Assembly: GCA_963826885.1 (NCBI GenBank)
Contig: CAWGYL010000001.1
Span: 145,777 to 209,776, forward strand
DNA from: Nitrospirota bacterium
GTDB lineage: Bacteria > Nitrospirota > UBA9217
DNA length: 64,000 nt
Direction: 5' to 3'
In this document: positions 3,778 through 33,664 of the stretch, piece after piece
How positions within the stretch are numbered: the stretch's first letter is position 1
Layout of the letters: every line of letters starts with the position of its first letter
Program-made: the position numbers and the translations under genes
Notes under the pieces: model-generated
Told to the model about the DNA's origin: nothing
Databases searched by the model: none
The model's input: only the letters and a program-made list of their open reading frames with translations

Positions 3778-4512
3778 GTGGAAAAACAGGAAAACAAGTT
3801 AGCTTTAATTATTGGGGGAAGCCGCGGCATCGGCCGGAGCATAGCACTCCGTCTCGCCAGCTCGGGCTTCTCGCTCTGGGTTACCTATAAAGGGAACCAC
3901 GATGCGGCGCGGAGCGTAAAGGCTGAAGTAGAGCAACTTGGCTGCTCCTGTGAGTTGATTCCTTTTGATGTTTCCAGCTATGAAGAAACCGAGGCCGCCC
4001 TGGCTGCCCGCGTTGAGAATGTAGCGCCTGATGTCCTTGTGTACAATTCCGGCATCTCCCGCGACAATCTTCTTATGTGGATGACAAAGGATGAATGGTA
4101 TTCCGTTCTTGCCACGAATTTGAACGGGTTCTTCAATGTGACGCGCATGGTGATTTTCTCGATGTTGAAAGCGAAACGGGGACGCATCGTCGTTGTGTCT
4201 TCCGCGTCGGGACAGCTCGGCCAGGCAGGACAGGTTAACTATTCTGCATCGAAAGCGGGTCTGATTGGCGCAGCCAAGGCCCTGGCGCGGGAAGTGGGGA
4301 AAAAGAACATCCTCGTGAACGTCGTCGCTCCCGGGTTCATCGAGACCGAGATGACCGGCGATATCCCGAAGGACAAGGTCCTTCCGCTCATTCCGCTCAA
4401 TCGCGTGGGGACGGCGGAGGACGTGGCGTCTGTCGTAAATTTTCTCTGCACCGAGGAGCACCTGTATGTTCACGGCCAGGTGATCGGCATCAACGGCGGG
4501 CTGGCGATGTAG
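3778..4512 (+). CDS. fabG: 3-oxoacyl-ACP reductase (SDR)
   Basis: GGSRGIG, NYSASKAG (YxxxK), VNVVAPGFIET; GTG at 3778 is a more plausible start than 3703. Confidence 0.93.
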   Translation: MEKQENKLALIIGGSRGIGRSIALRLASSGFSLWVTYKGNHDAARSVKAEVEQLGCSCELIPFDVSSYEETEAALAARVENVAPDVLVYNSGISRDNLLMWMTKDEWYSVLATNLNGFFNVTRMVIFSMLKAKRGRIVVVSSASGQLGQAGQVNYSASKAGLIGAAKALAREVGKKNILVNVVAPGFIETEMTGDIPKDKVLPLIPLNRVGTAEDVASVVNFLCTEEHLYVHGQVIGINGGLAM

Positions 4513-4564
4513 TCTCCATATTTTTTTGACAATAAACATCATTTTCCGGAGCATCTGACAAACA

Positions 4565-6061
4565 ATGAAAAAATACGACCATATCGTCGTGGGGAGCGGT
4601 ATCAGCGGTTTGACGATGACACTCCTGCTTTCCATGAACGGGCGTAAGGTGCTCCTGCTCGAAAAAGCCGGGCACATCGGCGGCTCCTTGGCGCGCTTCT
4701 CGAAGAAGGGCGTTTTTTTCGATACGGGTTTTCATTTCACCGGCGGGCTTCATGAGGGCGGCATCCTGTCCGATTGTCTGTCGTTCCTTGGCATCCGCGA
4801 TTATATAGAACCGATCTTTCTTTCCGAAGCGTGCAGGAATCTGTTTGTATTGGAAGCGGCGGGAAAGCGGTTTGAACTCCCCAGCGGCGTCGAGAACATA
4901 AAGAAATACCTCAAAGCCTACTTCCCCGGGGAAGTAGGCGCGATCGACCGCTATTTTGAAATGACCCGATCGGTTTGCAGCCGGACTCCCTCGCTCAATC
5001 TTCTTGAAAACGAAATATCATCGACCAACCTGGATGAAGATTTCGTCTCTCTTGACACGGTTCTCAGGGACCTGACCGGGAATGAATTGCTGCGGGGGCT
5101 GCTGTCCGGATATGCCATGTGCTACGGCGTGCGTCCGAAGGATGTTTCCTTTGCCAATCACAGCAGGATGGTCCTGAACTTTTATGAATCCATTGCCTGC
5201 GTAAAAAACGGCGGCGATGCCTTCATCAATGCCTTCCGGGAAAAATTCAAGGACTTTGATGTGGAGATCCGCTGCGAGACCTATATTACCGAGCTTGCGG
5301 ATATTCAGAATAGCAATGTCAGCCGATTCGTATTGAGCACCGGAGAAGAGGTTGCGGCCGATTCTTGTATTTTTACGATCCACCCCAAAGAGATACTGAA
5401 GATGTTGCCGAAGAAGCATTTCAGCAGGGCATTTGCGGCCCGCGTTTCATCATTCGAATCATCGGTCGGCTTTATTTCATTGTTCGCAGTGCTCAAACCC
5501 GAGACCAAAGACCCCAATCCCGAAGCGTCGCTGATATCGCTGTTTCCCGATAACGATATGAACAACATGCTGGACCCGGCCTACCAGGGGATGCCGGCCG
5601 TGGTCATCATCAAGTCCCCCGAGAGCGCAGAGGAAAATCTGAAGAAGGGGATCTGCATTCTTGAACCGTCGTATTTCGGGCATGTCGCGGAATGGAGCGA
5701 TTCCCGCAGGGGGCAGAGACCGCAGGCTTATCTGGAATATAAGACGAAGCGCGTCGAAACGATCAAGGAACATATTTTCAGCAATATTCCCGCCTACCGG
5801 GATTGTCTGGAAATTCTCGATGCGGGGTCCATGCTTACCTTCAAGGAATACCTGAACAGCCCTGAGGGAAGCGCTTACGGCGTGCAGCAGAAGATGGGAC
5901 AGTTCAACCTCATCGGGAAGTTGCCGCTTCACAATCTTTACGCTGCCGGTCAAAGTTCATTGCTGCCTGGGATTATCGGCGCGATGATGTCATCGCTGAT
6001 CGTCGGCCGGACCATCATGGGTAAAGAACTGTATGGAATGATGCTGAGCAAGGCGCTATGA
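4565..6061 (+). CDS. FAD-dependent oxidoreductase, phytoene desaturase/retinol saturase family
   Basis: VVGSGISG Rossmann motif, FDTGFHFTGG, GSAYG, NLYAAGQS..PGIIGAMMS. Confidence 0.85.
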   Translation: MKKYDHIVVGSGISGLTMTLLLSMNGRKVLLLEKAGHIGGSLARFSKKGVFFDTGFHFTGGLHEGGILSDCLSFLGIRDYIEPIFLSEACRNLFVLEAAGKRFELPSGVENIKKYLKAYFPGEVGAIDRYFEMTRSVCSRTPSLNLLENEISSTNLDEDFVSLDTVLRDLTGNELLRGLLSGYAMCYGVRPKDVSFANHSRMVLNFYESIACVKNGGDAFINAFREKFKDFDVEIRCETYITELADIQNSNVSRFVLSTGEEVAADSCIFTIHPKEILKMLPKKHFSRAFAARVSSFESSVGFISLFAVLKPETKDPNPEASLISLFPDNDMNNMLDPAYQGMPAVVIIKSPESAEENLKKGICILEPSYFGHVAEWSDSRRGQRPQAYLEYKTKRVETIKEHIFSNIPAYRDCLEILDAGSMLTFKEYLNSPEGSAYGVQQKMGQFNLIGKLPLHNLYAAGQSSLLPGIIGAMMSSLIVGRTIMGKELYGMMLSKAL

Positions 6062-7293
6062 CGAATCGGTTGTTGAAGAGGGTAGTAATAACCGGAATCG
6101 GAGCCGTAACCCCCTTCGGCAACGGAATAGCCGCGCTCATGAAGGGACTCGAAGAAGGAAGAAGCGCCGTGCGGCGCATGGAGGGCTGGGAGGAGTATAC
6201 CGGTCTCCGCAGTCTCGTCGGGGCGCCCGTGGAAATGCGGGACGAGAAGCGCATTCCCCGGCAGAAGCGACGGTCCATGGGTCGCATGAGCATTTTTGCG
6301 GCACAGTCCGCAGAAGAGGCGATTGCCGATGCTGGCATTACGCTGGAGCAGGAAGATCGGTGGCGCATGGGGTGCGTTATTGGATCGACCATGGGCAGCG
6401 CTAAGAGTATCAATGATGCTTTCGAGATCATGCTTCCCAATAAAGATTTGAGCCATTTGAACTCGACCATGTTCTTCCAGTGTATGTCCCACACCGCGGC
6501 AGCGAATGTGGCTCAGTACCTGGGCATCAACGGGTCCATCATGGCCCCTGCCGCGGCCTGCGCATCGGCTCTCCACGCCATCGGCGTCGGATACGATCTG
6601 ATCAGGCTGGGCAGGCAGGATGTTCTGCTCTGCGGAGGCGCGGAGGAGCTTCATCCCACGGTGACGGGGTCATTCGACATTCTCTATGCAACTTCGGCGG
6701 GTTATAATGACAGACCTCAGCAAACGCCGAGACCTTTTGACAAGGACCGAGATGGCCTGGTCTGCGGCGAAGGAAGCGGCATTCTGGTGCTGGAAGAATA
6801 CGAACGCGCAGTCAAGCGAAAAGTGAGGATTTACGCCGAGATTGCGGGTTTCAGCACTACGGCAAACGGCCTCCATGTGAGCCAGTCGAACAGGGAATCA
6901 ATGGTGATTTGCATGCACGAGGCACTCCGTGATGCTGGCCTGATGCAGAACGATATTGATTATATCAATGCCCATGCCACGGCCACGGTCCAGGGCGATC
7001 AGGAAGAGGCTGAGGCCATCGGTAAACTATTCGGGAACTCCGCCCCGGTCAGCAGCCTGAAAGGATATATTGGACACACGCTGGGGGCTTCCGGCGCCAT
7101 CGAACTGGAGGCGTCTCTCAAAATGATGGAACAGGGCGTGATCTACCCGACGCGCAATCTCGAAGCCGTAAGCCCGGATTGCGCGGGCATCAATCACGTG
7201 TTCATGCCGGTAAAAAAAGAAATCAGGAACCTGCTGAAAAACGGTTTCGCCTTCGGCGGGATTAATGCGGCGCTGGTGTGCAGGAAAGTTTGA
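6058..7293 (+). CDS. Beta-ketoacyl-ACP synthase (KS1, FabF/FabB-like)
   Basis: Cys-His-His triad: AAACAS, INAHATAT, KGYIGHTLG; C-terminal FAFGGIN. Confidence 0.95.
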   Translation: MTNRLLKRVVITGIGAVTPFGNGIAALMKGLEEGRSAVRRMEGWEEYTGLRSLVGAPVEMRDEKRIPRQKRRSMGRMSIFAAQSAEEAIADAGITLEQEDRWRMGCVIGSTMGSAKSINDAFEIMLPNKDLSHLNSTMFFQCMSHTAAANVAQYLGINGSIMAPAAACASALHAIGVGYDLIRLGRQDVLLCGGAEELHPTVTGSFDILYATSAGYNDRPQQTPRPFDKDRDGLVCGEGSGILVLEEYERAVKRKVRIYAEIAGFSTTANGLHVSQSNRESMVICMHEALRDAGLMQNDIDYINAHATATVQGDQEEAEAIGKLFGNSAPVSSLKGYIGHTLGASGAIELEASLKMMEQGVIYPTRNLEAVSPDCAGINHVFMPVKKEIRNLLKNGFAFGGINAALVCRKV

Positions 7294-7474
7294 TTTGAAG
7301 GCAAAAGAACAAGAATCAAAATCGGCGCGGTCGCAGTAATCTGTTTTTCCAACAAGCTCGGTATCGGAAAGTCACTTAATCACCTGAAACAGAGTGATTC
7401 CAGTAAACCGGAATGGCGTTAAAAGCGAACGAATAGACTTTTTTAAAAGCCCATCAAATTTTCCGGAGGAATGA

Positions 7475-7741
7475 ATGACCGATCAGGAAATCATCGAGAA
7501 AACGAACAAGGTATTCGAGGAGTCCTTTGAGATCGAGAAGGAACGGCTTGTGCCGCAGGCGCAAATCTTTACCGATCTCGGCCTCGACAGCCTCGACATC
7601 GTGGATCTGATCGTCGCGCTCCAGAACAGCTTCGGCGTCAAGATCAGGAATGAGGAAAAAGTCAGAGAGATCAGGACACTTCAGGACATTTATAAATTCA
7701 TTGTATCCCTCAAGGGCGAGGAAAGCAAAAAGAGCTCGTGA
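7475..7741 (+). CDS. Acyl carrier protein (ACP1)
   Basis: 88 aa, acidic, DLGLDSLD phosphopantetheine site; GGAGG RBS. Confidence 0.95.
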   Translation: MTDQEIIEKTNKVFEESFEIEKERLVPQAQIFTDLGLDSLDIVDLIVALQNSFGVKIRNEEKVREIRTLQDIYKFIVSLKGEESKKSS

Positions 7742-8517
7742 CAATGCCGGCTCGACAGAAAATTTATCTTCTTAACCTGTATTTTTATACGCTCTTCCTG
7801 CTGGCATCAGCAATCGGGATACCGGTGCTGACGCTCGGCGTGGCTTTTACGCGGCCGTTTTCTTCACACCGAAGGACCATGAAGCGATTCCGCCGGGCCA
7901 TAAGCTGGTATGGGAAACTGATTACGGCACTGCCCTGGCCGTTCATCAAGCTCCGGTACGAGGACCATGCGAAGAATAACCCGGGTGAGCCCTATATTTT
8001 CGTATGCAACCACCGATCGGCTTCTGACGCATTCCTGATGTGTGTGCTGCCCCATGAATGCGTGCAGATCGTGAACGTATGGCCTTTCCGGATTCCCGTG
8101 ATTGGAATGTATGCCAAACTCTCGGGATACCTGAATATCAGGATGATGTCCTATGAGGAGTTTATCGAGATAGCTGGCAAGTTATTGAATCAGGGGGTCT
8201 CCATCATCTTTTTTCCCGAAGGGACCAGGTCAGCAAACAGGCAAATGGGGAGCTTTCACGGTGCCGCTTTCAGGCTTGCGTTCAATACCAAGGCGGCCGT
8301 AGTCCCGCTTTGCATATCGGGGAATGAAAATATTCCACCCAAGGGGTCAATGATGTTACGGCCCGGGACTATCAGGGTGAGAAGACTCTCTGCCATCACC
8401 TGGGATGAATACAAGGACCTGAACGCCTATGCGTTCAAGAACCGGGTGCGGAACATTATCGACCAGGAACTGGTAAAAATGGAAGGTAGAGGCGGGGAAG
8501 CAGTTGATGGTAGATAG
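7738..8517 (+). CDS. Lysophospholipid acyltransferase (PlsC family)
   Basis: NHRSASD (NHxxxxD), FFPEGTRS, N-terminal TM segment. Confidence 0.9.
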   Translation: MTMPARQKIYLLNLYFYTLFLLASAIGIPVLTLGVAFTRPFSSHRRTMKRFRRAISWYGKLITALPWPFIKLRYEDHAKNNPGEPYIFVCNHRSASDAFLMCVLPHECVQIVNVWPFRIPVIGMYAKLSGYLNIRMMSYEEFIEIAGKLLNQGVSIIFFPEGTRSANRQMGSFHGAAFRLAFNTKAAVVPLCISGNENIPPKGSMMLRPGTIRVRRLSAITWDEYKDLNAYAFKNRVRNIIDQELVKMEGRGGEAVDGR

Positions 8518-8566: not shown

Positions 8567-9889
8567 ATGGCACTAATGATCAATATGATTGAATTCGACC
8601 GAAATAGAAAGCTTGAATTCTTAAGTCCCGGCGAGATACGGAAAGTGCAGGAAGGCTTGCTGCACAGGCACATGCATCATCTAGCGTCATCTTCGCCTTT
8701 TTATCGGAACCTGTTCCGAATAAAAGGCGTGGATATCAGCGGCGTGACCCTCGACAACCTACATAAGCTGCCGCTAACCGATAAGAGCATGCTGAGCGAG
8801 CATAACGACGATTTTCTCGCCGTTCCGCGAGCGCAAGTTGTGGACATCGTCCTTTCTTCGGGGACCACAGGAAGACCGACGGTCATGATGTATACGGAAA
8901 ACGATCTCCGCCGTCTGGCCTACAATGAGGAAATCTCGTTTACCGGCTGCGGTTTGACGCGAGAGGATGTTGTACTGCTGACCTGCACCCTGGACCGTTG
9001 TTTCATAGCAGGACTGGCATATTTCTCAGGCGTCCGAAGCCTTGGCGCGGCGGCGATCAGAAACGGGCTTTCTAGCTTTGAAAGCCATCTGGAAATCATC
9101 AAGAGAATGAAGCCGACAGCGCTGGTTGGCGTACCCACGTTCCTCATCAAGCTGGGCCAATTCATCCAGACGCAGGACATCGACCCTGCCTCGGTCGGAG
9201 TGGGAAAACTGATCTGCATCGGAGAGCCCATCCGCGACCGGGACCTTGAGTTCCTGCGAGTGGGAGCGGACCTCAAGGCCCTCTGGGGCGCCAGTATCTA
9301 TTCAACCTACGCATCTTCGGAGACTATTACGAGCTTTTGCGAGTGCACTACCCAGAAAGGCGGGCACCTGCACCCCGATTTGGCGATCGTGGAAATCGTG
9401 AACGAAGCGGGTGGGATCCTTCCGGCTGGGGAGATTGGAGAGGTGGTCATGACGCCCTTGTCCATAGAAGCTATGCCGCTGCTTCGATTCAGGACGGGGG
9501 ACATAAGCTTTCTTATGCATGAACATTGCTCCTGCGGAAGAAACTCGTCCCGCTTAGGCCCGATTCTTGGAAGAAAAAAACAGATGATCAAGTTCCGGGG
9601 AACAACGCTGTACCCGAACTCGATTTATACGGTGCTGGATTCGTTCCCGGAAGTCAGTGAATACTATGTCAGCGCATCGAGCGACTATGACTTGTCCGAC
9701 GTTGTGAAGGTCCATGTTGCGCTCAAGGACGCATCCTGTACAGCGGAGATGATCATGGACAAGCTTCAGGCTTATCTGCGGGTGCGGCCAGAGGTGGTCA
9801 TCGCAGACGAGGAAACCGTTAAAAAGCAAGTCTACTCCGGGAATCCGCGGAAATTAATCCGATTCGTCGATACGAGAAAGAGCCTATGA
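8567..9889 (+). CDS. Phenylacetate-CoA ligase (PaaK) family adenylating enzyme
   Basis: SSGTTGRP, TYASSE, LRFRTGD, GRKKQMIK. Confidence 0.88.
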   Translation: MALMINMIEFDRNRKLEFLSPGEIRKVQEGLLHRHMHHLASSSPFYRNLFRIKGVDISGVTLDNLHKLPLTDKSMLSEHNDDFLAVPRAQVVDIVLSSGTTGRPTVMMYTENDLRRLAYNEEISFTGCGLTREDVVLLTCTLDRCFIAGLAYFSGVRSLGAAAIRNGLSSFESHLEIIKRMKPTALVGVPTFLIKLGQFIQTQDIDPASVGVGKLICIGEPIRDRDLEFLRVGADLKALWGASIYSTYASSETITSFCECTTQKGGHLHPDLAIVEIVNEAGGILPAGEIGEVVMTPLSIEAMPLLRFRTGDISFLMHEHCSCGRNSSRLGPILGRKKQMIKFRGTTLYPNSIYTVLDSFPEVSEYYVSASSDYDLSDVVKVHVALKDASCTAEMIMDKLQAYLRVRPEVVIADEETVKKQVYSGNPRKLIRFVDTRKSL

Positions 9890-11373
9890 ATACCTGTCAG
9901 ACACAGATTTACGGTGCGGAATATTCCAATGAAGAGGTCGCCGAGGCGGTCCGGAACGGCAAACTGCTTTCCATGGAAATCGAGTTCAACAGCATCTGCA
10001 ATTTCCGTTGTGTGTACTGCTATGCGGCGGAAAACGGACAGCGGCGGAACGAACTAACGGTTGAACAGTTCCAGGACGTGATCACGCAGGCAAAGGAGCT
10101 GGGGGCACGTAAAATCATCGTTCTTGGCGGCGAGCCGATGCTCTATCCCTCGATCCTGAACATGCTGCAGTTCATCAGGCGGCTCGACATGGATGTCGAA
10201 CTCTTCACCAACGGTTCAGGAATCACGCCCGAAATGGCGCAGACGCTCTACGACATGCGTGTGCGTGTCGTGCTCAAGATGAACACGTTCGACGAGAAGC
10301 TCCAGGACACGCTTTCGGGAAGAAAAGGAGCATACGATCAGATCCGCCGGGCCTTCGACAATTTGAAACAGGCGGGCTATCCATCAGTGGACCGCTTCAT
10401 GGGAGTGAGCACCGTCATCTGCCGGCAGAACATCGACGAGCTTCCCAGACTATGGGAGTGGCTCCGGGACCAGAACATCGCCCCCTATTTCGAGATGATC
10501 ACTCCTCAGGGCGGAGCCAGGGACAACAGCGCGCTTGACATCAATACGAAAGAAGCTGAGGAATTCTTCCACAAGATCGCCGAGCTTGACAGGACGAAAT
10601 ACGGCCACCACTGGGAGCCGAGGCCGCCGCTGGTAGGAGGGGTATGCTTGCGCCATCAGTTTTCCTGCGCCGTGAACTCCGAAGGCTACGTCCAGCCCTG
10701 TGTCGGGGTCACGATCCCGATCGGGAATGTGCGGGAGAAAAAACTTGCTGATATCCTGAAAGACAGTGAGGTCGTCTCGGATCTGAAAAGCTACAGGAGC
10801 ATGATAAAGGGCCCCTGCGGCAACTGCGACCATATAAGTGTATGCTACGGCTGCAGGGGGGCCGCCTACCAGCTGACTGGCGATTACCTTGCCTCGGACC
10901 CCCTTTGCTGGAGGAACCTCGATAAAAAAGACGATATCATCTATCTTCCCGTGGATGCAGCGCTGCTCGTTCCCCACAAGCCGCCGATGCTACTCATCGA
11001 CCGCCTGCTGGAAATAAAAGAGCGGTCGTCCCTGTTGGAAATGACGGTTAAGGACAACACGATCTTTGTCGGAGCTGATAACAGGCTTGACGATGTGTCG
11101 TACCCGGAGATCCTGGCCCAGGCCATTGCTGCCCAGGAAGGATTCCGGAAGCTCGGATGCCGGGATTACCAACCAGAAGGGTTTCTGCTCGGACTGAAGA
11201 ACCTGGAAATCATCGGATCAGCCAGAGTCGGGGATACGCTCCAAATCTTCGTACAAAAAGTAGCCAAGTATGGAGACTTCGGCATCATCCAGGGCGAAGT
11301 CCGGAAAGGCAATGATGTGATAGCCCGCGGCGAATTGAAAGTCTACCAGAGCGACGGCAAGGTGGCCGCATAA
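9886..11373 (+). CDS. Radical SAM/SPASM protein fused to a C-terminal hot-dog (ApeP/FabZ-like) domain
   Basis: CNFRCVYC, GGEP, VQPC, CGNC..C.GC..DPLC SPASM cysteines; the last ~140 aa contain LVPHKPPMLLID...EILAQAIAA...GFLLG. Confidence 0.88.
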   Translation: MNTCQTQIYGAEYSNEEVAEAVRNGKLLSMEIEFNSICNFRCVYCYAAENGQRRNELTVEQFQDVITQAKELGARKIIVLGGEPMLYPSILNMLQFIRRLDMDVELFTNGSGITPEMAQTLYDMRVRVVLKMNTFDEKLQDTLSGRKGAYDQIRRAFDNLKQAGYPSVDRFMGVSTVICRQNIDELPRLWEWLRDQNIAPYFEMITPQGGARDNSALDINTKEAEEFFHKIAELDRTKYGHHWEPRPPLVGGVCLRHQFSCAVNSEGYVQPCVGVTIPIGNVREKKLADILKDSEVVSDLKSYRSMIKGPCGNCDHISVCYGCRGAAYQLTGDYLASDPLCWRNLDKKDDIIYLPVDAALLVPHKPPMLLIDRLLEIKERSSLLEMTVKDNTIFVGADNRLDDVSYPEILAQAIAAQEGFRKLGCRDYQPEGFLLGLKNLEIIGSARVGDTLQIFVQKVAKYGDFGIIQGEVRKGNDVIARGELKVYQSDGKVAA

Positions 11374-12041
11374 TGGCGTGCAAGTTAATCAGGAGCATTG
11401 CCGCGGTTCTGCTGGCGGTCCTGTTGGCGTGCCCTGTTTTTGCTGGCGAAAATCCAGATGGCGAAACAGAAAACCTTGTAGCGTTCCTGAACGCCTTGGG
11501 AAAAAAGGTTTCCGATTTTAAAACCCTGAAGACCGATTTTACCCAGGAAAAGGAAATGGCCATGTTCAAGGACAAACTCGTCCTAAAGGGCCGGATTTAT
11601 CTTGAGAAGCCGAACAAAGTAGCTTGGCACGTCGATTCCCCTCTCCGTTATTCCGTTCTGATCACCGACAAACTAATCCGTCAATGGGACGAGGATACCA
11701 ACCAGGTTCAGGAAATATCCCTGACAAAAAACCCTATTTTTCAGAACGTACTCAATCAACTCACGGTTTGGTTCTCCGGAGACTACAGCTCGCTTATCGA
11801 AGGCAATGCCGTGCGCATCGTCAAGCGCGATCCGTTGGAAATTGAATTCCTCCCGTTGGAAAAGAACATCACCAAAAAAGTCATCAAGAGCATTACCATC
11901 ACGTTCCGTGACGACCAGAAATATCTCCGGCAAATCCGGATCCTGGAACAGAGCGGTGACATTACGACCATTCATTTCACCAATACCCGCTTGAATGCCC
12001 CTCTCGATAAAAGCGATTTCGAGGTAAAAGGGCATGTTTGA
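11373..12041 (+). CDS. LolA-like lipid/lipoprotein carrier
   Basis: Signal peptide; DFTQEK...GRIYLEKPNKVAW typical of the LolA-like family. Confidence 0.85.
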   Translation: MACKLIRSIAAVLLAVLLACPVFAGENPDGETENLVAFLNALGKKVSDFKTLKTDFTQEKEMAMFKDKLVLKGRIYLEKPNKVAWHVDSPLRYSVLITDKLIRQWDEDTNQVQEISLTKNPIFQNVLNQLTVWFSGDYSSLIEGNAVRIVKRDPLEIEFLPLEKNITKKVIKSITITFRDDQKYLRQIRILEQSGDITTIHFTNTRLNAPLDKSDFEVKGHV

Positions 12042-14418: not shown

Positions 14419-14419
14419 A

Positions 14420-15079
14420 ATGAGAACGCCAGCCTTGGTCATACTCCTGCTCGTTGCAGGATGCAGCGCTGTTCCTTTTCAAGAAACGGCCCGGGTACCA
14501 ATGGCGCCGGAGGCGCCTCGCAGCGTTGTCGAGCGATTTCAAGAACACATGCCGGACATTTTTCAATTGCTCAATACTGTTGTTTTTGAGTATAATTGGC
14601 GCAAGTTTGTTGGCATCGGCTCCATTGAAATCAACAGACGCGACTACCTGTTCAGGGTCGTGTGTCTCAACCCCATGGGCGTAAAATTGTTCGAACTTGA
14701 GGGAAACCGGGATAGGATTGTTCCCGTTTACTCGATCGCGGCATTCAGTAAATACGGCAATATCGCTTCCGTGGTTGGCACCGACATTAAGCGGATTTAC
14801 TTTGATCTAATACCTTCCACTGATGCGAGGATATGGAGAACAAGGTACAGCATCAGTTTCCGTCAAGCCTCAGGCGACGAAACGTTAGAGTATCTCTTTG
14901 CAGGAAAACAGGGTGACCTCGTCGAGAAGAATTATTACGACGGCAGCGGCCTTGCCTGGCGAGTTTCGTACTATGAGTATCAGGAACAGAGCGGCAAGCG
15001 GTTTCCCCGCGGAATTGTGCTGTTGAACTATCAGCACGGCTATCGCTTGATCGTACGGCAAAAGGAGTTCCATTCTTGA
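14420..15079 (+). CDS. Lipoprotein, DUF3261/LolB-like
   Basis: Lipobox VAG-C after hydrophobic stretch; PMGVKLFEL segment; usual position in aryl-polyene-type clusters. Confidence 0.6.
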   Translation: MRTPALVILLLVAGCSAVPFQETARVPMAPEAPRSVVERFQEHMPDIFQLLNTVVFEYNWRKFVGIGSIEINRRDYLFRVVCLNPMGVKLFELEGNRDRIVPVYSIAAFSKYGNIASVVGTDIKRIYFDLIPSTDARIWRTRYSISFRQASGDETLEYLFAGKQGDLVEKNYYDGSGLAWRVSYYEYQEQSGKRFPRGIVLLNYQHGYRLIVRQKEFHS

Positions 15080-22950: not shown

Positions 22951-23166
22951 AGTCCTTGAAGCCGGGCAAGCGGAGCAGGGTTGCGCGTGTCAACAGCCCC
23001 TTTGCCCCCGGATGGGGACATTCCCGACCGTTACGCCCCTGCCGGAAAGCGGCAGGCGACTGAAGACTGCTGTCTTCTTCCCGTGGCAGGAAGGACTATT
23101 TACGGGAAAACGCAATGTTTCATCAAAGAACAAGGCCTGAGCATGCCGGCAGGGGAGAATAGCCAT

Positions 23167-24534: not shown

Positions 24535-24590
24535 CTGAAGAAACGCACTTGTCCGGCATTGTCACGAACCATTCTATCGTGTGGTATTTT

Positions 24591-25526
24591 ATGAGTCGTC
24601 TAATCATAATCACAATAGCATTGTCTTTCCTCCTGTCCTGCAACGGTGCGCATCAACAATACGATTCGCCCCGCACTGTGTCGGTCCCTTTGTTCACTTA
24701 CATCCTGGACGACGGCAATGATACGGATTACTTGGTGGCGAAGGAGATTTTCACAGAACAGGGTGCCGTTGCCTGCTCTGCGGTCACGACGGACTGGATC
24801 GGCAAGAACAACCATCTGACCGCTGATCAGATCAGGGCGCTCCGCGACGCGGGCTGGGAAATCATGAGCCACACGGTATCCCATCACCATCTCACGTCAC
24901 TCAATGCCGCGCAGATCGAGGATGAGTTTTCACGGTCGATCGCTACGCTCGAGAGTTTGGGTGTGACGGTGCACAATATCGTCTATCCCTACAACCAGAG
25001 CAACGAGTTGGTCAGAAAGATTGCGGCAAAATACTACCGGTCTGGCAGGGGCGGGACGTATGCTGTGAATTATGCAGGCACAGATCCTTATTTTTTAAAA
25101 TCTTTTCCCTATAAACACGATCTCACCGGGATGAAGCAGACTATCGATCATTCGTATGCCGATCGAGCCTGGCTCATAGTGTATCAGCATGAGGTAGATA
25201 TCAAGATCGATATCACGGACAGGAGGGGAACTTTTGTCCCAGGAGAGCACTTGACCTTTAGCCCGTCGGGCGCAGTGGGCAGGTATGAAGCGCCTGCGTG
25301 GTTCCAGTATTTTGGGTCGCTCTATTTCGTTCCCCTGGCTGGAACACCACAACCTGGGGACTGGATATTGGGAAAGTCAAGCAATGCATCGGCGAAGTTC
25401 AATCATGTTATATACGACGACCGCGCGGCCATCATCGATATGATACGGTATGTCCGTACGAAGTATCCAGACATGCGCATCGTGACCGTAGATCAGGGGC
25501 TGAATTTGCTGGGGATGGCGAAATAG
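24591..25526 (+). CDS. Lipoprotein polysaccharide deacetylase (NodB/CE4)
   Basis: Lipobox LLS-C; ILDDG, EIMSHTVSH, VYPY, YQHEV. Confidence 0.82.
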   Translation: MSRLIIITIALSFLLSCNGAHQQYDSPRTVSVPLFTYILDDGNDTDYLVAKEIFTEQGAVACSAVTTDWIGKNNHLTADQIRALRDAGWEIMSHTVSHHHLTSLNAAQIEDEFSRSIATLESLGVTVHNIVYPYNQSNELVRKIAAKYYRSGRGGTYAVNYAGTDPYFLKSFPYKHDLTGMKQTIDHSYADRAWLIVYQHEVDIKIDITDRRGTFVPGEHLTFSPSGAVGRYEAPAWFQYFGSLYFVPLAGTPQPGDWILGKSSNASAKFNHVIYDDRAAIIDMIRYVRTKYPDMRIVTVDQGLNLLGMAK

Positions 25527-25615: not shown

Positions 25616-26791
25616 ATGAGCGAAACCTCTATTCTCATAACCGGCATGGGAGCAATATCCGCGGCGGGAGACACGATTCCTGAAACGCTTGCAACATTCG
25701 AGCGCGGGCAACGGAATGCGGGACCGGTTACGCGTTTTCCCACGAAACTGACCTATCCTGTTTTCGAGGTCAAGAACCTGCCGTCTCGGTATTTTCTCGA
25801 AGGTCAACGAACCTTGAGCCTAGCTCTCATTGCCGTTGACCAGGCCCTTGCCGAAGCAGATCTCGGCGATGTATCAGGACTTCGCATCGGCGTGTGCATG
25901 GGCACGACTGTGGCCAGCCAGTTGAACGACCTTCAATTTTACACTTCATTCCGCGAGCGCGACGAAGCGCCGATGACTGCGGTTGAACGGTTTCTGAAAG
26001 GGAACCTGGCAGAGGTCATCAGCCGCAAGCTCAAGGCGCGCGGACCAGCGCTTACTGTGGTGAACGCCTGTTCTTCGGGGACCGATGCCATCGGCGTTGC
26101 ACTTTCTTGGCTCAGGAGCAATCTTTGCGACATCGCTCTTGCAGGCGGCGCTGATGAACTGAATCACGTTCCTTACTGCGGGTTTGGCTCGCTCGGCATC
26201 GTAAACCCCGGGTTGTGCGCCCCCTTTGACAGGGATCGGAAAGGGCTGAACCTCGGTGAAGGTGCCGGCGTCGTGGTCCTAGAGAAGACGACCGCGCGGA
26301 AGCGAGGACGATCGTCGGAGCTTGTTCTTCTCGGGTACGGCTCATCGAGCGATGCATATCACCTTACCGCCCCGAGCCCTGACGGCGTTGGACTCAAGGC
26401 ATCGCTCAGGACTGCGCTCGATGAGGCTGGTATTAAACCGGAAGAGGTGGGCTTCGTGAACGCCCATGGCACCGGCACGCATGACAATGATCTCGTGGAG
26501 GGTAATACGCTGGCCGGAATGTTCGGAAAAGACCTGAAGATGCTTTCCACCAAGGGATACACCGGCCATACGCTCGGAGCGGCAGGGGGACTCGAGGCAG
26601 TGTTCACGGCGCTCGGTCTCCGGGAGGGCTGGATACCGGCAAGCGCGGGATTTTCAAACCAGGACGCTGCCATCGCTCTCGCCCCGGTGCGGGTAAAAAC
26701 GGAGGTAGGCGGTTACTATGCAATCTCAACATCGCTGGCCTTCGGGGGCAATAATGCCGCGCTCGTGATCGGGCGGGGAGTAAGGGAATGA
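25616..26791 (+). CDS. Beta-ketoacyl-ACP synthase (KS3)
   Basis: NACSSG, VNAHGTGT, KGYTGHTLG, FGGNN. Confidence 0.94.
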   Translation: MSETSILITGMGAISAAGDTIPETLATFERGQRNAGPVTRFPTKLTYPVFEVKNLPSRYFLEGQRTLSLALIAVDQALAEADLGDVSGLRIGVCMGTTVASQLNDLQFYTSFRERDEAPMTAVERFLKGNLAEVISRKLKARGPALTVVNACSSGTDAIGVALSWLRSNLCDIALAGGADELNHVPYCGFGSLGIVNPGLCAPFDRDRKGLNLGEGAGVVVLEKTTARKRGRSSELVLLGYGSSSDAYHLTAPSPDGVGLKASLRTALDEAGIKPEEVGFVNAHGTGTHDNDLVEGNTLAGMFGKDLKMLSTKGYTGHTLGAAGGLEAVFTALGLREGWIPASAGFSNQDAAIALAPVRVKTEVGGYYAISTSLAFGGNNAALVIGRGVRE

Positions 26792-27858
26792 ATGTTCTCG
26801 GGATCGGAGCCGTGTTTGCTGGAGGCATCGGCATCAAAAGCTTAGAAGAGACCCTGGTCGCAGGGTGGCAAAAGCCGGTTGACGTGGAGGCCAAATGGGC
26901 AGCGAGTGGAAAATACCCGGTATATCAGGCAAATCTCGACGACGTCCCGGATAAGACGATACTTAAAAAAGTCAGGCGCGCGGACCGGTTAAGCAAGATG
27001 GCGGTGATCTGCGCTGCGGATGCGATCAAGGATAGTGGAATCAGGGATATCAATAGGGAGAAAGTGGGCGTAATCGTAGCAACCGCATTTGGCGCGCACG
27101 TGACGACCTTCGGTTTTCTCGACAATATCCTCGATTTTGGCGAAACTGCCGTTTCTCCCACGATATTTTCAAATTCGGTGCATAATGCCGCGGCTTCCTA
27201 TGTTTCGTCGTCGCTTGACATCAAAGGGCCGACGCTCACCATAACGCAGTTCCGCTTTTCCTTCCAGTCGGCGCTGCAGCTTGCGCTTGTCTGGCTTCAG
27301 CAGAAGCGCTGCGATTATGTTCTGGCCGGCGCTGTGGATCAGTTCGGCGATGTACTGTGTTATGTTGCCGACCGGAAGCTGACCACAGCCCAGGATGGCA
27401 GGATTAAGCCATTTGTCTTCAAGCCAACCTTCCAGGTGCCTGGTGAAGGCGCAATTTTTTATATTTTGGGGCGTGAGAAGATGGAGAAGGCCTATTGCAC
27501 TGTTCAATCAGTCATGATCAATGACAATACTTCGCAGGGCGCGGGTACGGATGTCATAATCATCGATGCCGACGGCATGCTTCCCGACGAGTCGGCTTAT
27601 CTTGCCTGCGCTGATTCAGGGGTGTTGCTTGCGGCATATTCTCCGCTTTTCGGAACGATGATGACGGGCAGCGCCTTTAATGTGGCCGCCGGCGCATTGA
27701 TGCTGAGCAAACAGCGCTATTTCCCGAACCCGGTACAGGATAATCCCCAGGGTCTGAGAATACTGACTGATAGCGGATCGGCGAATATAGCAGCAATTGA
27801 ATGTGTCGGATACGACTGTCATTCTACGAGAGCAGCAGTTCGTTTGATCGCTATATGA
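26788..27858 (+). CDS. Chain-length factor / non-catalytic KS partner (CLF2)
   Basis: RRADRLSKMA, SPTIFSNSVHNAAAS; no catalytic Cys. Confidence 0.82.
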   Translation: MNVLGIGAVFAGGIGIKSLEETLVAGWQKPVDVEAKWAASGKYPVYQANLDDVPDKTILKKVRRADRLSKMAVICAADAIKDSGIRDINREKVGVIVATAFGAHVTTFGFLDNILDFGETAVSPTIFSNSVHNAAASYVSSSLDIKGPTLTITQFRFSFQSALQLALVWLQQKRCDYVLAGAVDQFGDVLCYVADRKLTTAQDGRIKPFVFKPTFQVPGEGAIFYILGREKMEKAYCTVQSVMINDNTSQGAGTDVIIIDADGMLPDESAYLACADSGVLLAAYSPLFGTMMTGSAFNVAAGALMLSKQRYFPNPVQDNPQGLRILTDSGSANIAAIECVGYDCHSTRAAVRLIAI

Positions 27859-27904
27859 AACGCATATAAGACATCAATTGAATCACTCATCGTGAGGAAC
27901 TATC

Positions 27905-28147
27905 ATGACTGTAGAAGAAATCGAAAGAAAATTGATCGACGGTATTTCAGCAATTACGAATAAGAATGCGTCGGAGATCACCGTGGACAAGGCCTTTCAT
28001 GATCTCGGCATCGACTCGATGGGATTCGTTGAAATTCTCGTGTACATCGAAAAGACCTTTAAGCTCCAGCTGATCGCGTCGGACCTGACCAAGAAGGATT
28101 TCGAGAGCATCCGTTCACTGGCAACACATATCAACAGGAAATTGTAG
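27905..28147 (+). CDS. Acyl carrier protein (ACP3)
   Basis: DLGIDSMGFVE; 80 aa. Confidence 0.92.
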   Translation: MTVEEIERKLIDGISAITNKNASEITVDKAFHDLGIDSMGFVEILVYIEKTFKLQLIASDLTKKDFESIRSLATHINRKL

Positions 28148-30698: not shown

Positions 30699-30716
30699 AA
30701 GAGAAAGGGGTTGCGC

Positions 30717-32174
30717 ATGCGTATTCTCCTCGTTAAACCGAATCCTCAGCTCCTCGTGGCCAAAAGGCTTCAGGAAGGTTTCCTGCATCTCGAACCGTTG
30801 GAACTTGAAATGGTCGCGGCCGGGGTGCCGACGGAAGATGAGGTCATTATCCAGGACCTGAGCTTCGAGAAAGACCCAGTCCGGGGCTTTGAGAAAAAAG
30901 TCCGCCGCTTTGATCCGCAAATCGTCGGATTCACCGGCTACAGCTCCCAGTCTGGAATGGTCAAGCGCCTCGCGGCGCTGACGAAGAAGATCAACCCGAA
31001 GATCGTTACGGTTGTCGGAGGCACACATGCAACGATCGTACCGGCGGACTATGCCATAAACGGCGAGGGCATTGATATAGTCGTGCGCGGTGAGGGAGGC
31101 ACGGCCTTCGCTGAAATCGTGAAACGCTACAAAAACGACGCAACGCTCGCTTTCGGCGACAACGTCCTGTCCCCCCGGGCCTCGGACTTCGCGGAAAAGG
31201 CGGCCGGCCCACCGCCCGAGTTCCCTCCGGTGGACCAGATTCCGCGTGCCCGGAGGGAACTGGTTGACCGTTCTCGATACTTCTGCGTCTGGACCTCTAG
31301 CACGGAGAAGAAACTCGACACGATATTCCCACGCATGGCGAGCATGCGCACATCCACGGGATGTGCTTATTCCTGCTCTTTTTGCGTGGTGCACTACATG
31401 ATGCGCGGAAAATACCTCCAGCGTCAGCCTGAAGACGTGGTTGACGAAATCTCGAAGATCCCCGAGGATCATATCTACTTCGTCGATGATGAAACGTTTC
31501 TGAACAGGGACCGATTGACGAAGATTGCGAACCTGCTTATCGAAAAAGGGATCAAGAAGAAGTATATCAGCTGGGCTCGGGCAGACACCATTGTCAAGTA
31601 TCCCGATCTTTTCAGACTCTGGAAACAGGTCGGCTTGAGCGTCGTTTACGTTGGCCTTGAAGCCATGGTAGGGTCGCGGCTAGATAAATACAAAAAACGC
31701 ACGAATGTCGACACAAACCGGAAAGCCGTCGAGCTTCTCAAGGAAATCGGCATCACGCTGCATGCGAGCTTCATGGTAGATCCGGACTTCTCGGTCCAAG
31801 ATTTCCGCGATCTGGAAGTGGAAATCATAAAAGTTTGTCCCGCGGAAGTTTCGTTTACGGTCTTTTCACCGTCGCCGGGAACGGATCTCTGGAAAGAGCA
31901 CAAGGACGATTATATCGTTGATCCCTACCTGTATTACGATTGCATGCATACGATTCTGCCGACGAAGCTCGACATGAAACTGTTCTATGCGCACTTCGCG
32001 AAGCTGTCCCGTGTCGCTCTGCAGGCGAACCCGCTCAGGGTGAACAAGGTGAAGGTGCCATTCCGGGAGATGGTGAAGATCATTTATCTGGGGACCCGGT
32101 ATATTTTCTCGATGAGGAACATTCATAAAGACTATTCGTCGAACGGCGCATCGGGAAAAGCGTTCAAGACATGA
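30717..32174 (+). CDS. Cobalamin-dependent radical SAM protein
   Basis: EPLELE, VVGGTHAT, VRGEG, TGCAYSCSFC, YFVDD, SPSPGT. Confidence 0.9.
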   Translation: MRILLVKPNPQLLVAKRLQEGFLHLEPLELEMVAAGVPTEDEVIIQDLSFEKDPVRGFEKKVRRFDPQIVGFTGYSSQSGMVKRLAALTKKINPKIVTVVGGTHATIVPADYAINGEGIDIVVRGEGGTAFAEIVKRYKNDATLAFGDNVLSPRASDFAEKAAGPPPEFPPVDQIPRARRELVDRSRYFCVWTSSTEKKLDTIFPRMASMRTSTGCAYSCSFCVVHYMMRGKYLQRQPEDVVDEISKIPEDHIYFVDDETFLNRDRLTKIANLLIEKGIKKKYISWARADTIVKYPDLFRLWKQVGLSVVYVGLEAMVGSRLDKYKKRTNVDTNRKAVELLKEIGITLHASFMVDPDFSVQDFRDLEVEIIKVCPAEVSFTVFSPSPGTDLWKEHKDDYIVDPYLYYDCMHTILPTKLDMKLFYAHFAKLSRVALQANPLRVNKVKVPFREMVKIIYLGTRYIFSMRNIHKDYSSNGASGKAFKT

Positions 32175-32236
32175 GGTTCAAGGAGAGTTGGATGAAATAT
32201 ACGCCTTTTTGTTAGAATTTCTTTCTTCAATAACGA

Positions 32237-33664
32237 ATGAACATATTTGAAATTATCAAGCGCGAAACCGAGCGGAGTGGCGATAAGATTGCCGTGATTG
32301 AAGGTGATGACCGGATTACCTACGGTCAATTGCTCTCCTCGGTTGAGACGGTCGCTGAGGCCTTGAGAAAACAGGGGGTGAGCCGGCTTCACCGTGTGGG
32401 TCTACTCTGCGAAGACAGTATCGATTATATCGTCGCGAGCCTTGCGATTTTGTCTCTATCGGCAGTAATTATCCCGATCCCGCCGGAACAGGCTGCAGAA
32501 GAGATCGAAACAGTCATCGACCGGATCGACGTTGACTTCCTCGTTGCCGAGCCGAGGCTGCGGCGGGGTGGATATAGTGCTCCCTTGCAGTCCCCGGGCT
32601 TTTTCAAGAAGGAATTCATGATTGTGAAGCGGACACCGAGAGAACGTCCAAAGGCCGAGTACTACAGGCTTAACCCGGCTTTCATTAGGTTCAGTTCAGG
32701 CACCACAGGAACGAGCAAGGGCGTCGTGCTTTCCCATGAAGCGATCATCGAGCGGACCGATGCTGCGGATAAGGGTCTGCAGATCACCTCAAAGGATACC
32801 GTGCTTTGGGTACTGTCCATGAGTTTTCATTTCGTTGTTACTATACTCCTGTTCCTCCGGAATGGCGCGACCATTGTGCTATGCGGCAACCGATTTCCCG
32901 AGGCTCTTATCGACGGGATTTCGAGAGAGAAGGGAACGTTCATTTACGCGTCACCCTTTCATTACAGCTTGCTTTCACGGACCGAAACGATTTCCGGCGA
33001 CGCACTGAAAAGTATCCGGCTGGCTGTTTCGACAGCCATGAAACTGCCGGAACAGATTGCTGGTGAGTTCCGGGAAAAATTCGGCTTTGAGCTGACCGAA
33101 GCCTATGGGATTATTGAAGTCGGCCTCCCATTCATCAGGCTTTCCGGGGGCAAAGAAAAACGCGGATCAGTGGGTAAACCGCTGCCCGATTACGAGATAA
33201 AACTCGACAAGAAGGATGCCGATGGTGTTGGGGAGATCCGCATCAGGGGGAAAGGCATGCTCGACGCCTATTATTCTCCGTGGCAGGGAAGAGATGACGT
33301 GCTCGCTGACGGCTGGTTCAGGACCGGTGATCTTGGCAAAATCGACAGTGATGGTTTTCTCTTCATCGTGGGCAGAGAAAAAGACGTGATCAACTTCGCG
33401 GGAATGAAGGTTTTTGCCCAGGAAGTCGAATCCGTGCTGAATCAGCACCCGCTGGTAAAGGAGTCACTGGTTTACGGTGCCGCACATTCCCTCTACGGGC
33501 AACTACCCATGGCGAAGATTGTACTGCGTGACGGCATTGAAAATCCCGATGTGAATGAGCTTAGCCGATTCTGTTATCAGCGGCTGGCGCAGTACAAGGT
33601 GCCCAAGGGCTTTGAGTTCATCGATCGTCTGGAAAAAACGGCGAGCGGGAAGATCAAGCGGTAG
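32237..33664 (+). CDS. Class I adenylate-forming enzyme (acyl-CoA/acyl-ACP ligase)
   Basis: FSSGTTGTSKG, EAYGIIE, FRTGDLG, TASGK. Confidence 0.92.
   Translation: MNIFEIIKRETERSGDKIAVIEGDDRITYGQLLSSVETVAEALRKQGVSRLHRVGLLCEDSIDYIVASLAILSLSAVIIPIPPEQAAEEIETVIDRIDVDFLVAEPRLRRGGYSAPLQSPGFFKKEFMIVKRTPRERPKAEYYRLNPAFIRFSSGTTGTSKGVVLSHEAIIERTDAADKGLQITSKDTVLWVLSMSFHFVVTILLFLRNGATIVLCGNRFPEALIDGISREKGTFIYASPFHYSLLSRTETISGDALKSIRLAVSTAMKLPEQIAGEFREKFGFELTEAYGIIEVGLPFIRLSGGKEKRGSVGKPLPDYEIKLDKKDADGVGEIRIRGKGMLDAYYSPWQGRDDVLADGWFRTGDLGKIDSDGFLFIVGREKDVINFAGMKVFAQEVESVLNQHPLVKESLVYGAAHSLYGQLPMAKIVLRDGIENPDVNELSRFCYQRLAQYKVPKGFEFIDRLEKTASGKIKR

Follow-up and report, generated by a model that had tools for sequence, protein, structure and literature searches.

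Fatty acid synthase (FAS)-like loci of the anammox bacterium K. stuttgartiensis (kuste3335-3352) were reported by Rattray et al. in 2009 (PMC2649909) to stand in 'striking' synteny with loci of D. psychrophila (DP1853-1860), and the accessible text of that paper also names similar clusters in Geobacter and Pelobacter carbinolicus; in the same text D. psychrophila is described as being without ladderanes and as containing only C31:8/C31:9 hydrocarbons. When anammox genes were expressed in E. coli by Javidpour et al. (2016), no new fatty acid was obtained, and two radical S-adenosylmethionine (SAM) proteins were undetected. Geller-McGrath et al. (2023) found clusters labelled 'ladderane' by antiSMASH to be expressed in many non-anammox phyla, leaving their function open, and ladderane biosynthesis is still given as unknown in a 2026 review (PMC13459092) and a 2026 preprint. 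The field now favours another candidate, the six-gene 'Cluster I', which is described as restricted to organisms that make ladderanes. Here we analyze a stretch of 64,000 nucleotides, called the window in the following, from contig CAWGYL010000001.1 (positions 145,777 to 209,776) of a Nitrospirota bacterium (assembly GCA_963826885.1; 4.47 Mb, 21 contigs, 90% complete), which carries a large lipid/polyketide gene cluster. The cluster belongs to the 'ladderane-like' family described in 2009 and its kind is therefore known. As an earlier sequence-only reading of this DNA had supposed, no product assignment for the family was found in the literature on aryl polyenes, radical SAM enzymes, anaerobes, B12 and ladderanes; a literature search returned no paper on TIGR04072, the protein family of one of its enzymes, or on its product name, and PMC12758564, consulted for ladderane genes, contains nothing on this cluster. 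Papers on the clostridial aryl polyenes celluxanthene and flavoaffinin showed no mention of radical SAM in the matches listed.

The evidence inclines, if only slightly, towards a cluster making an exported, two-chain, polyene-type envelope lipid, which undergoes cobalamin-dependent C-methylation and is probably not a ladderane. In the ORF listing, the region is an unbroken train of 28 co-oriented open reading frames (ORFs) on the plus strand, between window positions 3703 and 33664; 15 of the 27 gene junctions overlap, when the longest putative ORFs are taken, and the whole is one operon-like biosynthetic cluster. Co-orientation had been noted before, for 26 genes; the count was too low by two, the additional ones being the lipoprotein gene g10 and g25 (genes are numbered as in Table 1). 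The longest ORF of g01 starts from a TTG at 3703, and position 3778 is an in-frame GTG just before the Rossmann motif. Protein classes were assigned by Pfam and NCBIfam profile scans and by PDB sequence matches, judging scores against curated cut-offs or gathering scores, and these scans confirm all the enzyme classes named in the sequence-only reading. Motifs and alignment also agree with its counts. Each of five radical SAM proteins has one CxxxCxxC motif (one SPASM, three B12-binding, one HemN-like), three ketosynthases (KSs) keep the Cys-His-His residues, the two proteins resembling chain length factors (CLFs), g14 and g23, are without the Cys (in g14, at the KS active-site position), and three acyl carrier proteins (ACPs) carry a DSL or DSM motif.

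The scaffold had been compared to aryl-polyene and flexirubin clusters, and this comparison holds: judged by profile and PDB matches, the core appears to be a full toolkit of an aryl-polyene/flexirubin-type type II polyketide synthase (PKS). LolA2_flexi is matched by g08 over its cut-off, FlxY and FlxB by g06 and g01 below theirs. For the adenylating ligase g06, FlxY_rubin is the top NCBIfam family (463 bits, cut-off 520), followed by PaaK (183.6 and 161.7 bits), and the protein is predicted to be the likely activator of the starter acid. The ketoreductase g01 has FlxB_rubin_SDR at the top (290.7 bits, cut-off 340) and a FabG family, PRK12826.1-2, at 236.9 bits (cut-off 222), and KS1 reaches 434.4 bits with PRK09116 (cut-off 470). 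Chains A and B of PDB entry 6qsr, which we take to be the aryl-polyene dehydratase pair, are the best PDB matches of g11 (E 0.0016) and of the C-terminal half of g07 (E 4.2e-7), respectively, and these two are presumed to be dehydratase partners. KS3 matches FabF 4ls5, the ishigamide polyene KS 6kxd, 9s5h_B and ApeO 6qsp at 170-197 bits, with 173.8 bits for 6qsp, which was confirmed to be ApeO-ApeC. No enoyl reductase of the FabI, FabK or FabV type turned up in the Pfam and NCBIfam scans of the 28 products.

The radical SAM enzymes were compared with named families in the same way. The g16 protein matches the NCBIfam equivalog TIGR04072 ('rSAM_ladder_B12') at 624.7 bits (cut-off 360), over positions 1-442 of 443; together with the colinear clusters present in Geobacteraceae and Pelobacter genomes, this upholds the link to the 'ladderane-candidate' islands proposed from the sequence. 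Its next-best families are BzaD (195.5 bits) and the TsrM type (140.4 bits), and its best PDB match is TsrM 6wte (115.6 bits). BzaD and TsrM both methylate aromatic sp2 carbons and, since these are the nearest characterised relatives of g16, C-methylation is the likeliest reaction of the g15/g16 pair. Radical methylation, cyclisation and cross-linking had all been suggested; the C-methylase relatives of the core B12 enzyme argue for the first, and nothing was found for the other two. The partner g15 stays short of the Pfam gathering scores (B12-binding 28.3 bits, threshold 32.1; Radical_SAM 27.2 bits, threshold 29.5) and is without a named family, its best NCBIfam match being at 55.6 bits (cut-off 251). 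It is always located directly before g16, with a 4-base overlap, and is the most conserved protein among those aligned (mean column identity of 80% over 32 sequences from several phyla). A complex prediction for g15 and g16 gave a score of 0.01 (mark 0.32), informative in neither direction. In a metagenome-assembled genome of Elusimicrobiota, a single ORF of 903 amino acids spans g15 and g16 (locus L063, 8648-11359), and the sister locus L057 keeps two genes; the two genes may be naturally fused there, or the ORF may be an artefact of assembly or of the reading frame and, being a single case and maybe an assembly error, it was left unused as evidence for a complex.

In g07, a SPASM radical SAM part (residues ~30-345, with CNFRCVYC at residue 38) is followed by an ApeP-like half (~352-492). 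This second half is matched by Pfam ApeP-like at E 3e-4, under the gathering score, and its alignment to 6qsr_B covers residues 352-489. These matches indicate that a SPASM radical SAM enzyme and a dehydratase half are joined in one conserved protein, a new annotation; such a fusion would keep the radical enzyme next to the carrier-bound chain. The nearest named family of g27 is the hopanoid C-3 methylase HpnR (229.2 bits, cut-off 650), followed by BchE (141.6 bits). For g20 the matches are ChuW/HutW (178.7 bits, cut-off 400) and, in the PDB, HemN 1olt (100.1 bits) and the methyltransferase NocN (83.6 bits). The possibility that g20 is the housekeeping HemW was rejected, HemW being found elsewhere in the genome.

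No Pfam, NCBIfam or PDB sequence match was obtained for g25. An AlphaFold2 model, built from a 30-sequence alignment, has a predicted local distance difference test (pLDDT) score of 86.2 and a predicted template modelling (pTM) score of 0.89. With this model, Foldseek returned AzeD (8s6l, E 3e-20, TM 0.73), the SrfA-C condensation domain, TRI3 and PapA5 (1q9j, E 1e-16). Within the motif FDHxxxDxxG, no variation is seen at H141 and G148, and hardly any at D145. The modelled fold is that of PapA5 and of nonribosomal peptide synthetase (NRPS) C-domain-like acyltransferases, to which this protein is newly assigned here on structural grounds, and g25 may couple an ACP-bound chain to a hydroxyl or an amine. 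An Atlas search, providing leads only, found the nearest clusters to be unnamed and commonest in Omnitrophota and Planctomycetota; in one hit set, 18% of the members carry a Condensation domain.

An exported, sugar-bearing envelope lipid, as earlier proposed, would fit the gene set, and the following route may be drawn. An aromatic or similar acid would be activated by g06 and loaded on an ACP; KS1, KS2 with the short CLF, the ketoreductase g01 and the two-part dehydratase (g11 and the C-terminal half of g07) would then build a conjugated polyene, with no enoyl reductase acting on the chain. The SPASM domain of g07 and the invariant g15/g16 pair would tailor the carrier-bound chain, the likeliest tailoring being C-methylation of the aryl head or of the polyene. 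A second chain would be made by a second arm, composed of the ligase g28, KS3 and its CLF, ACP3, the flavoenzymes g26 and g02 and the HpnR-like g27, and would be joined by g25 to an acceptor, the first chain or the anchor, through an ester or amide bond. The GT2 enzyme g17, the deacetylase g21 and the two acyltransferases would build a sugar-lipid anchor, and delivery of the product to the outer membrane would fall to the MMPL, LolA2 and LolB-like proteins. A further methyl-derived modification might be added in this genome by the HemN-like g20.

Table 1. Genes of the cluster, with window coordinates, strand and the evidence for each assignment (scores in bits, unless E is indicated).
Gene	Product	Coordinates	Strand	Evidence
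g01	Ketoreductase, FabG/FlxB/ApeQ-like	3778..4512	+	Pfam adh_short 171.7
g02	CrtI/amine-oxidase-like flavoenzyme ('phytoene dehydrogenase-like')	4565..6061	+	Pfam NAD_binding_8, Amino_oxidase
g03	Ketosynthase KS1, ApeR-like, Cys-His-His intact	6058..7293	+	Pfam ketoacyl-synt N and C; alignment
g04	ACP1 (GLDSLD)	7475..7741	+	Pfam PP-binding; NCBIfam PRK05350 70.5 (cut-off 65)
g05	PlsC-type acyltransferase	7738..8517	+	Pfam Acyltransferase 72.6; NCBIfam AGP_acyltrn 60, under cut-off
g06	PaaK/FlxY/ApeH-like adenylating ligase	8567..9889	+	Pfam AMP-binding, AMP-binding_C_2
g07	Radical SAM-SPASM + ApeP-like hotdog dehydratase half	9886..11373	+	Pfam Radical_SAM, SPASM, ApeP-like
g08	LolA2-like periplasmic lipid carrier	11373..12041	+	NCBIfam LolA2_flexi 126.6 (cut-off 125); Pfam LolA 83.6
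g09	MMPL/HAE3 RND-type exporter	12034..14418	+	Pfam MMPL 27.9 (threshold 20.5)
g10	Lipoprotein, LolB/DUF3261 (ApeN)-like	14405..15079 (longest ORF from 14285)	+	Lipobox LLVAGCS
g11	Hotdog dehydratase, ApeI/FabZ-like	15076..15465	+	Pfam FabA, ApeI-like, PKS_DH_N, E ~4e-4, under gathering scores
g12	4HBT/YbgC-type thioesterase	15467..15952	+	Pfam 4HBT_2 55.7; NCBIfam YbgC/FadM 57.5 (cut-off 68.7)
g13	Ketosynthase KS2, ApeO-like, Cys-His-His intact	15919..17073	+	Pfam, NCBIfam, alignment
g14	Short CLF-like protein, ApeC-like, 227 amino acids	17264..17947	+	Pfam ketoacyl-synt N only, 24.3
g15	Divergent B12-binding/radical SAM protein	17937..19205	+	CRFNCFPC at residue 173
g16	TIGR04072 'lipid biosynthesis B12-binding/radical SAM protein'	19202..20575	+	CSYKCVYC at residue 190
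g17	GT2 glycosyltransferase fused to membrane domain DUF2062	20460..21755	+	Pfam Glycos_transf_2 64.8, DUF2062 43.1
g18	LpxL-type (lipid A late) acyltransferase homologue	21733..22641	+	Pfam Lip_A_acyltrans 56.7; NCBIfam all under cut-off
g19	ACP2 (GLDSLD)	22648..22950	+	Pfam PP-binding; NCBIfam PRK09184 75.3 (cut-off 70)
g20	HemN/ChuW-like radical SAM protein	22981..24534	+	Pfam Radical_SAM, HemN_C
g21	Polysaccharide (NodB-type) deacetylase	24531..25526	+	Pfam Polysacc_deac_1 56.9
g22	Ketosynthase KS3, Cys-His-His intact	25616..26791	+	Pfam; NCBIfam PRK09185 284.1 (cut-off 407)
g23	CLF-like partner of KS3, without Cys and His motifs	26788..27858	+	Pfam ketoacyl-synt N, Ketoacyl-synt_2; alignment
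g24	ACP3 (GIDSMG)	27905..28147	+	Pfam PP-binding 45.9
g25	Free-standing protein, probable condensation-domain fold, 438 amino acids	28162..29478	+	Predicted structure
g26	FAD-dependent oxidoreductase PF12831	29457..30698	+	Pfam FAD_oxidored 260.7
g27	B12-binding radical SAM protein	30711..32174	+	Pfam B12-binding 66.4, Radical_SAM 61; CAYSCSFC at residue 218
g28	FadD/MenE-like acyl-AMP/CoA ligase	32237..33664	+	Pfam AMP-binding 196.6, AMP-binding_C 68.6

For several other products in Table 1, the NCBIfam matches are under cut-off. The flavoenzyme g02 matches CrtD (88 bits) and crtI_fam (48.8 bits), both far under cut-off; the exporter g09 matches HAE3 (86.5 bits) and HpnN-like (77.3 bits), also under cut-off, as are all the matches of g17, to polyprenyl-phosphate sugar transferase types. 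The ligase g28 reaches 282.3 bits with a long-chain-fatty-acid-CoA ligase subfamily (cut-off 476), and no NCBIfam family is over cut-off for g26. For g10, weak Pfam matches alone were seen (DUF4292, LolB and DUF3261, E 0.007-0.06), and the NCBIfam scan gave no match.

In order to evaluate how widespread the cluster is, relatives were sought. At least 7197 proteins were found at E <= 1e-30 among the 8000 candidates scored from a large protein database. A collection in which each species is represented by a single genome gave 481 pattern matches, and for 402 of these the relationship was confirmed. An even sample of the phylum, own genome included, contains 74 genomes out of 401 with a TIGR04072 match over cut-off. 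The window is thus an ordinary member of a very widespread, already described family, and the cluster is neither rare nor of a new kind. The genus is represented by 14 further genomes, of which 3 carry a high-scoring orthologue, 9 only a paralogue at 290-330 bits, and 2 neither; because of these counts, the presence of the cluster is described as patchy. A paralogue of this type (~290-330 bits, under cut-off) is also located outside the window, at G000:C1:899971-901311; across the phylum, this paralogue occurs more widely than the cluster does.

Synteny was analyzed on the loci of the best 80 of the 402 relatives, taking up to 10 kb on each side of g16 and searching them with the window proteins by tblastn. 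Three or more genes were detected in 76 loci, and in 74 of these the gene order strictly follows that of the window; the 74 belong to Nitrospirota, Geobacterales, Desulfuromonadales, Desulfobacterales, Omnitrophota and unnamed bacteria. In two Elusimicrobiota loci only g15 and g16 are retained in place. Several genes are present in all the loci that span their site: the g15/g16 pair in 58/58 (g14-g17), g07, with ~495 amino acids, in 27/27 (g06-g08), g10 in 43/43 (g09-g11) and g25 in 32/32 (g24-g26). The deacetylase g21 is found in 37 of the 55 loci spanning g19-g22, and the HemN-like g20 lies inside the cluster in only 4 of the 55 spanning its site (L013, L036, L038 and L039). The core is thus set at 26 genes. 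Five radical SAM genes inside the cluster, as listed in the sequence-only reading, are a minority layout, and g20 is accessory at this position.

Extra flanking sequence was taken for five cluster-bearing genomes. Genes g01-g05 are syntenic in all five, and a g20 homologue with 57-69% identity is present elsewhere in three of them (~11 kb downstream, just upstream, or on another contig). In the window, pheS and pheT are directly upstream of the cluster, and rhomboid, response regulator and sigma-70 genes follow downstream; pheS/pheT and the three downstream genes are conserved in only the two Nitrospirota among these five genomes, and the borders of the cluster are therefore placed at g01 and g28. 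A terminator-like site after pheT and a promoter-like site at 3499-3527 were identified as consensus matches alone.

A quick maximum-likelihood tree of g15 and g16 was built from 68 rows, with a midpoint root only, after dropping loci in which either gene had less than 85% coverage, less than 50% identity, or a stop. Twelve rows of Geobacterales/Desulfuromonadales type and two of Elusimicrobiota fall inside a set otherwise composed of 15 Nitrospirota rows, with a support of 99 (loci of these groups compared with Nitrospirota: L024-L034, L042, L044, L045, L049, L057, L061 and L063). Identities of 72-77% reach the level seen within Nitrospirota and, with the nesting, suggest that the cluster was transferred between phyla. 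Contigs of two peat RNA libraries, from one study, cover 23 and 24 of the 30 bins of window positions 3700-23600 with at least 93% likeness, and expression of the cluster is possible; no meaning attaches to the bins left uncovered.

Several points weigh against the polyene-type lipid proposed above. No product has been observed for any member of the cluster family in the literature searched, and no pigment is reported, in the accessible text on it, for D. psychrophila, described as a carrier of syntenic clusters. The FlxY score of g06, the FlxB score of g01 and the PRK09116 and PRK09185 scores are all under curated cut-offs, as are the ApeI and ApeP Pfam matches under their gathering scores, and the roles given to g02, g07, g15, g26 and g27 follow from superfamily membership only. 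No starter acid is assigned, and the cluster is without a tyrosine ammonia-lyase or chorismate lyase gene; malonyl supply is assumed, FabD not being found in the assembly, and the contigs of the peat RNA libraries could also derive from carried-over DNA. That no FabD (TIGR00128, PF00698) was found in the 90%-complete assembly is attributed to a gap in the assembly and not to true absence, given that only 639 bases separate the canonical fabF from the end of its contig.

Housekeeping FAS II was also considered for the cluster and rejected, since its KSs are under the FabF cut-off and two FabF over cut-off are encoded on other contigs. The canonical fabF is at G000:C18:639-1859, where the usual fab operon was probably cut by the assembly, and a further tandem KS pair is at G000:C18:195050-197910. 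Sub-threshold matches to the ring-forming type II PKS of cispentacin were seen at window 25616-28147 (AmcF 210.5 bits against 325, AmcG 29 against 80, AmcB 46.1 against 80); these scores of KS3, its CLF and ACP3 are no higher than those with ordinary FabF families, and are a lead only.

Rather unlikely, in our estimate, is a mostly saturated, methyl-branched outer-membrane acyl glycolipid, similar to lipid A or to an ornithine lipid, as the product in place of a polyene; the B12 radical SAM enzymes would methylate unactivated carbons, and one flavoenzyme would be the enoyl reductase. The LpxL-like and PlsC-like acyltransferases, the deacetylase and the GT2 enzyme would all find a place in such a lipid, g27 is nearest to an sp3 C-methylase, HpnR, and two flavoenzymes of unassigned function are available; against this, the best-matching characterised KS, CLF and dehydratase systems form polyenes, and the closest matches of g06 are FlxY and PaaK rather than ligases of fatty acids. 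We give a low probability also to the oxygen-independent route to polyunsaturated fatty acids or hydrocarbons proposed by Rattray et al. 2009 (PMC2649909), in which acyl chains, during growth or once complete, would be desaturated by the CrtI-like and radical SAM enzymes, the remaining proteins serving to process and transport the lipid. FAS-like genes are indeed accompanied here by genes for a CrtI-like flavoenzyme and for several radical SAM enzymes, and D. psychrophila, the reported syntenic carrier, makes C31:8/C31:9 hydrocarbons and, as far as the accessible text of that paper goes, is reported to lack polyketide-type polyunsaturated fatty acid genes. The combination of KS/short CLF, presumed split dehydratase, presumed aryl-type ligase and LolA2/MMPL/lipoprotein set, on the other hand, matches the toolkit for aryl polyenes, in which conjugation arises from the omission of enoyl reduction and a desaturase is unnecessary. 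It also counts against this route that C31:9 hydrocarbons arise in other bacteria via the Ole/Pfa route. The inference chain was called weak by the reviewers of the 2009 paper, in the part of their comments that is accessible.

There is a slim chance that the g15/g16 pair and the dehydratase-tethered SPASM enzyme form C-C bonds, as rings or cross-links, on a carrier-bound polyene, giving a new class of carbocyclic envelope lipid. If this were true, anaerobes of the Nitrospirota, Geobacterales, Desulfobacterales and Omnitrophota would commonly contain a carbocyclic lipid, ladderane formation would have evolved from the ancestral chemistry of the pair present in the anammox locus, and cultivable Geobacter would offer a tractable model of this long-standing problem. 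A ladderane or other lipid of concatenated rings, closed by the B12 radical SAM pair, is highly improbable. In its favour, the model matched by g16 is named rSAM_ladder_B12, a related locus is described in anammox K. stuttgartiensis in the accessible text of Rattray et al. 2009 (PMC2649909), and a B12 radical SAM enzyme is still called upon in reviews to explain how cyclobutanes form. Against it, the family is found at no fewer than 402 places, the majority of them in phyla without known ladderanes; D. psychrophila was tested and none were found, according to the same text; the favoured locus is the different six-gene cluster described as anammox-exclusive; and the matches of KS3/CLF to 9s5h and of g11 to amxFabZ do not exceed those to ordinary FabF and FabZ.

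The cluster family is among the commonest large lipid/polyketide clusters of anaerobic sediment, peat and groundwater bacteria, and is mislabelled 'ladderane' by genome-mining tools. The identity of its product would name an abundant envelope lipid of anaerobes and a potential biomarker, would give functions to at least three radical SAM families, the nameless g15 included, and would show whether the locus shared with anammox bacteria relates to ladderanes. New handles are offered by the putative condensation-fold coupling enzyme g25, by the radical SAM-dehydratase fusion g07 and by the map of core versus accessory genes.

The surroundings of the cluster show further features. The phenylalanyl-tRNA synthetase (PheRS) genes at window 93-3253 are of the short type, with a beta chain of 565 amino acids (B3_4, B5 and a catalytic-like domain) and an alpha chain of 436, a layout usually termed archaeal or eukaryote-like; two other Nitrospirota genomes have them, with 72-80% identity, in the same place immediately before the cluster. 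A DDE transposase gene with DUF4372 is found at 37896-39062 on the minus strand, 4 kb downstream of the cluster, and the G+C content drops from ~0.52-0.55 to 0.42-0.47 across 36-48 kb of the window.

Among the known systems, the kuste3335-3352 and DP1853-1860 loci, as described in the accessible text of Rattray et al. 2009 (PMC2649909), share with the window two adjacent radical SAM genes, phenylacetyl-CoA-ligase-like and phytoene-dehydrogenase-like genes, a glycosyltransferase, an oxidoreductase, an MMPL-type membrane protein, several FabF paralogues and ACPs. They differ in that two SAM methylases (kuste3338 and kuste3347) are listed in K. stuttgartiensis and none is present in the window, and in that the window has a HemN-like gene. 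Orthology of g15/g16 to kuste3342/3343 is inferred, the link being the name of the TIGR04072 model and the accessible 2009 text. The match to anammox islands put forward in the sequence-only reading stands as far as the locus is shared with organisms without ladderanes; it does not extend to the anammox-exclusive Cluster I. This latter cluster (kuste3603-3608: amxACP, amxFabZ, amxFabF2/FabFmut, PDH and a B12 radical SAM enzyme) has in common with the window a KS/CLF-like heterodimer, a phytoene-dehydrogenase-like flavoenzyme and a B12 radical SAM protein; it comprises only six genes and is said to be restricted to anammox bacteria, whereas the host of the window is a Nitrospirota bacterium. 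The score of g11 with amxFabZ 7qv0 (21.6 bits) is no better than with ordinary FabZ, and KS3 scores 190.6 bits with 9s5h_B, which from its two chains and date is probably the anammox KS/CLF heterodimer, and 196.6 bits with B. subtilis FabF.

PapA5 and stand-alone condensation acyltransferases appear to have the same two-lobed, chloramphenicol acetyltransferase (CAT)-like fold as the g25 model, with the conserved His in HxxxD; g25 differs from the PapA5 type by an identity of 10-15%, by the lack of a Pfam match and by the motif DHxxxDxxG in place of HHxxxDG. The class C methyltransferases and cyclopropanases of HemN type (Jaw5, NocN) resemble g20 in the HemN fold family, in the HemN_C domain and in their occurrence in a polyketide-type cluster; the NocN match is of 83.6 bits only, as given above, and g20 is under every NCBIfam cut-off. 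Jaw5 cyclopropanates an unsaturated polyketide chain (review PMC13459092).

The aryl-polyene (APE) clusters of Gram-negative bacteria (ApeA-S, with structures from X. doucetiae and A. baumannii), as far as the accessible text of PMC8358021 describes them, resemble the window in pairing one KS with a short CLF and in having another KS on its own, together with a ketoreductase, two ACPs, a thioesterase, acyltransferases and a glycosyltransferase. Export genes of LolA-like, MMPL and lipoprotein type are likewise common to both, and a dehydratase made of two proteins and an adenylating ligase for the starter are probably shared as well. The window differs by the fusion of its ApeP-like half to a radical SAM-SPASM enzyme, and no ApeB-type SAM methyltransferase was seen in its cluster. 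To our knowledge, the APE gene set is without radical SAM genes, a CrtI-like gene, and a second KS/CLF/ACP arm with a condensation-fold protein. From the flexirubin clusters of Bacteroidota the window differs in that LolA2 (g08) alone passes its cut-off, in that the hosts are anaerobes and the radical SAM set is extra, and in its second arm, made of KS/CLF/ACP and the predicted condensation-fold protein; the flexirubin counterpart of this arm is DarA/DarB. FlxY, FlxB and LolA2_flexi are nevertheless the top NCBIfam families of g06, g01 and g08, and flexirubin, in which a polyene acid is esterified with a second lipid chain, is similar in design to the two arms suggested for the window.

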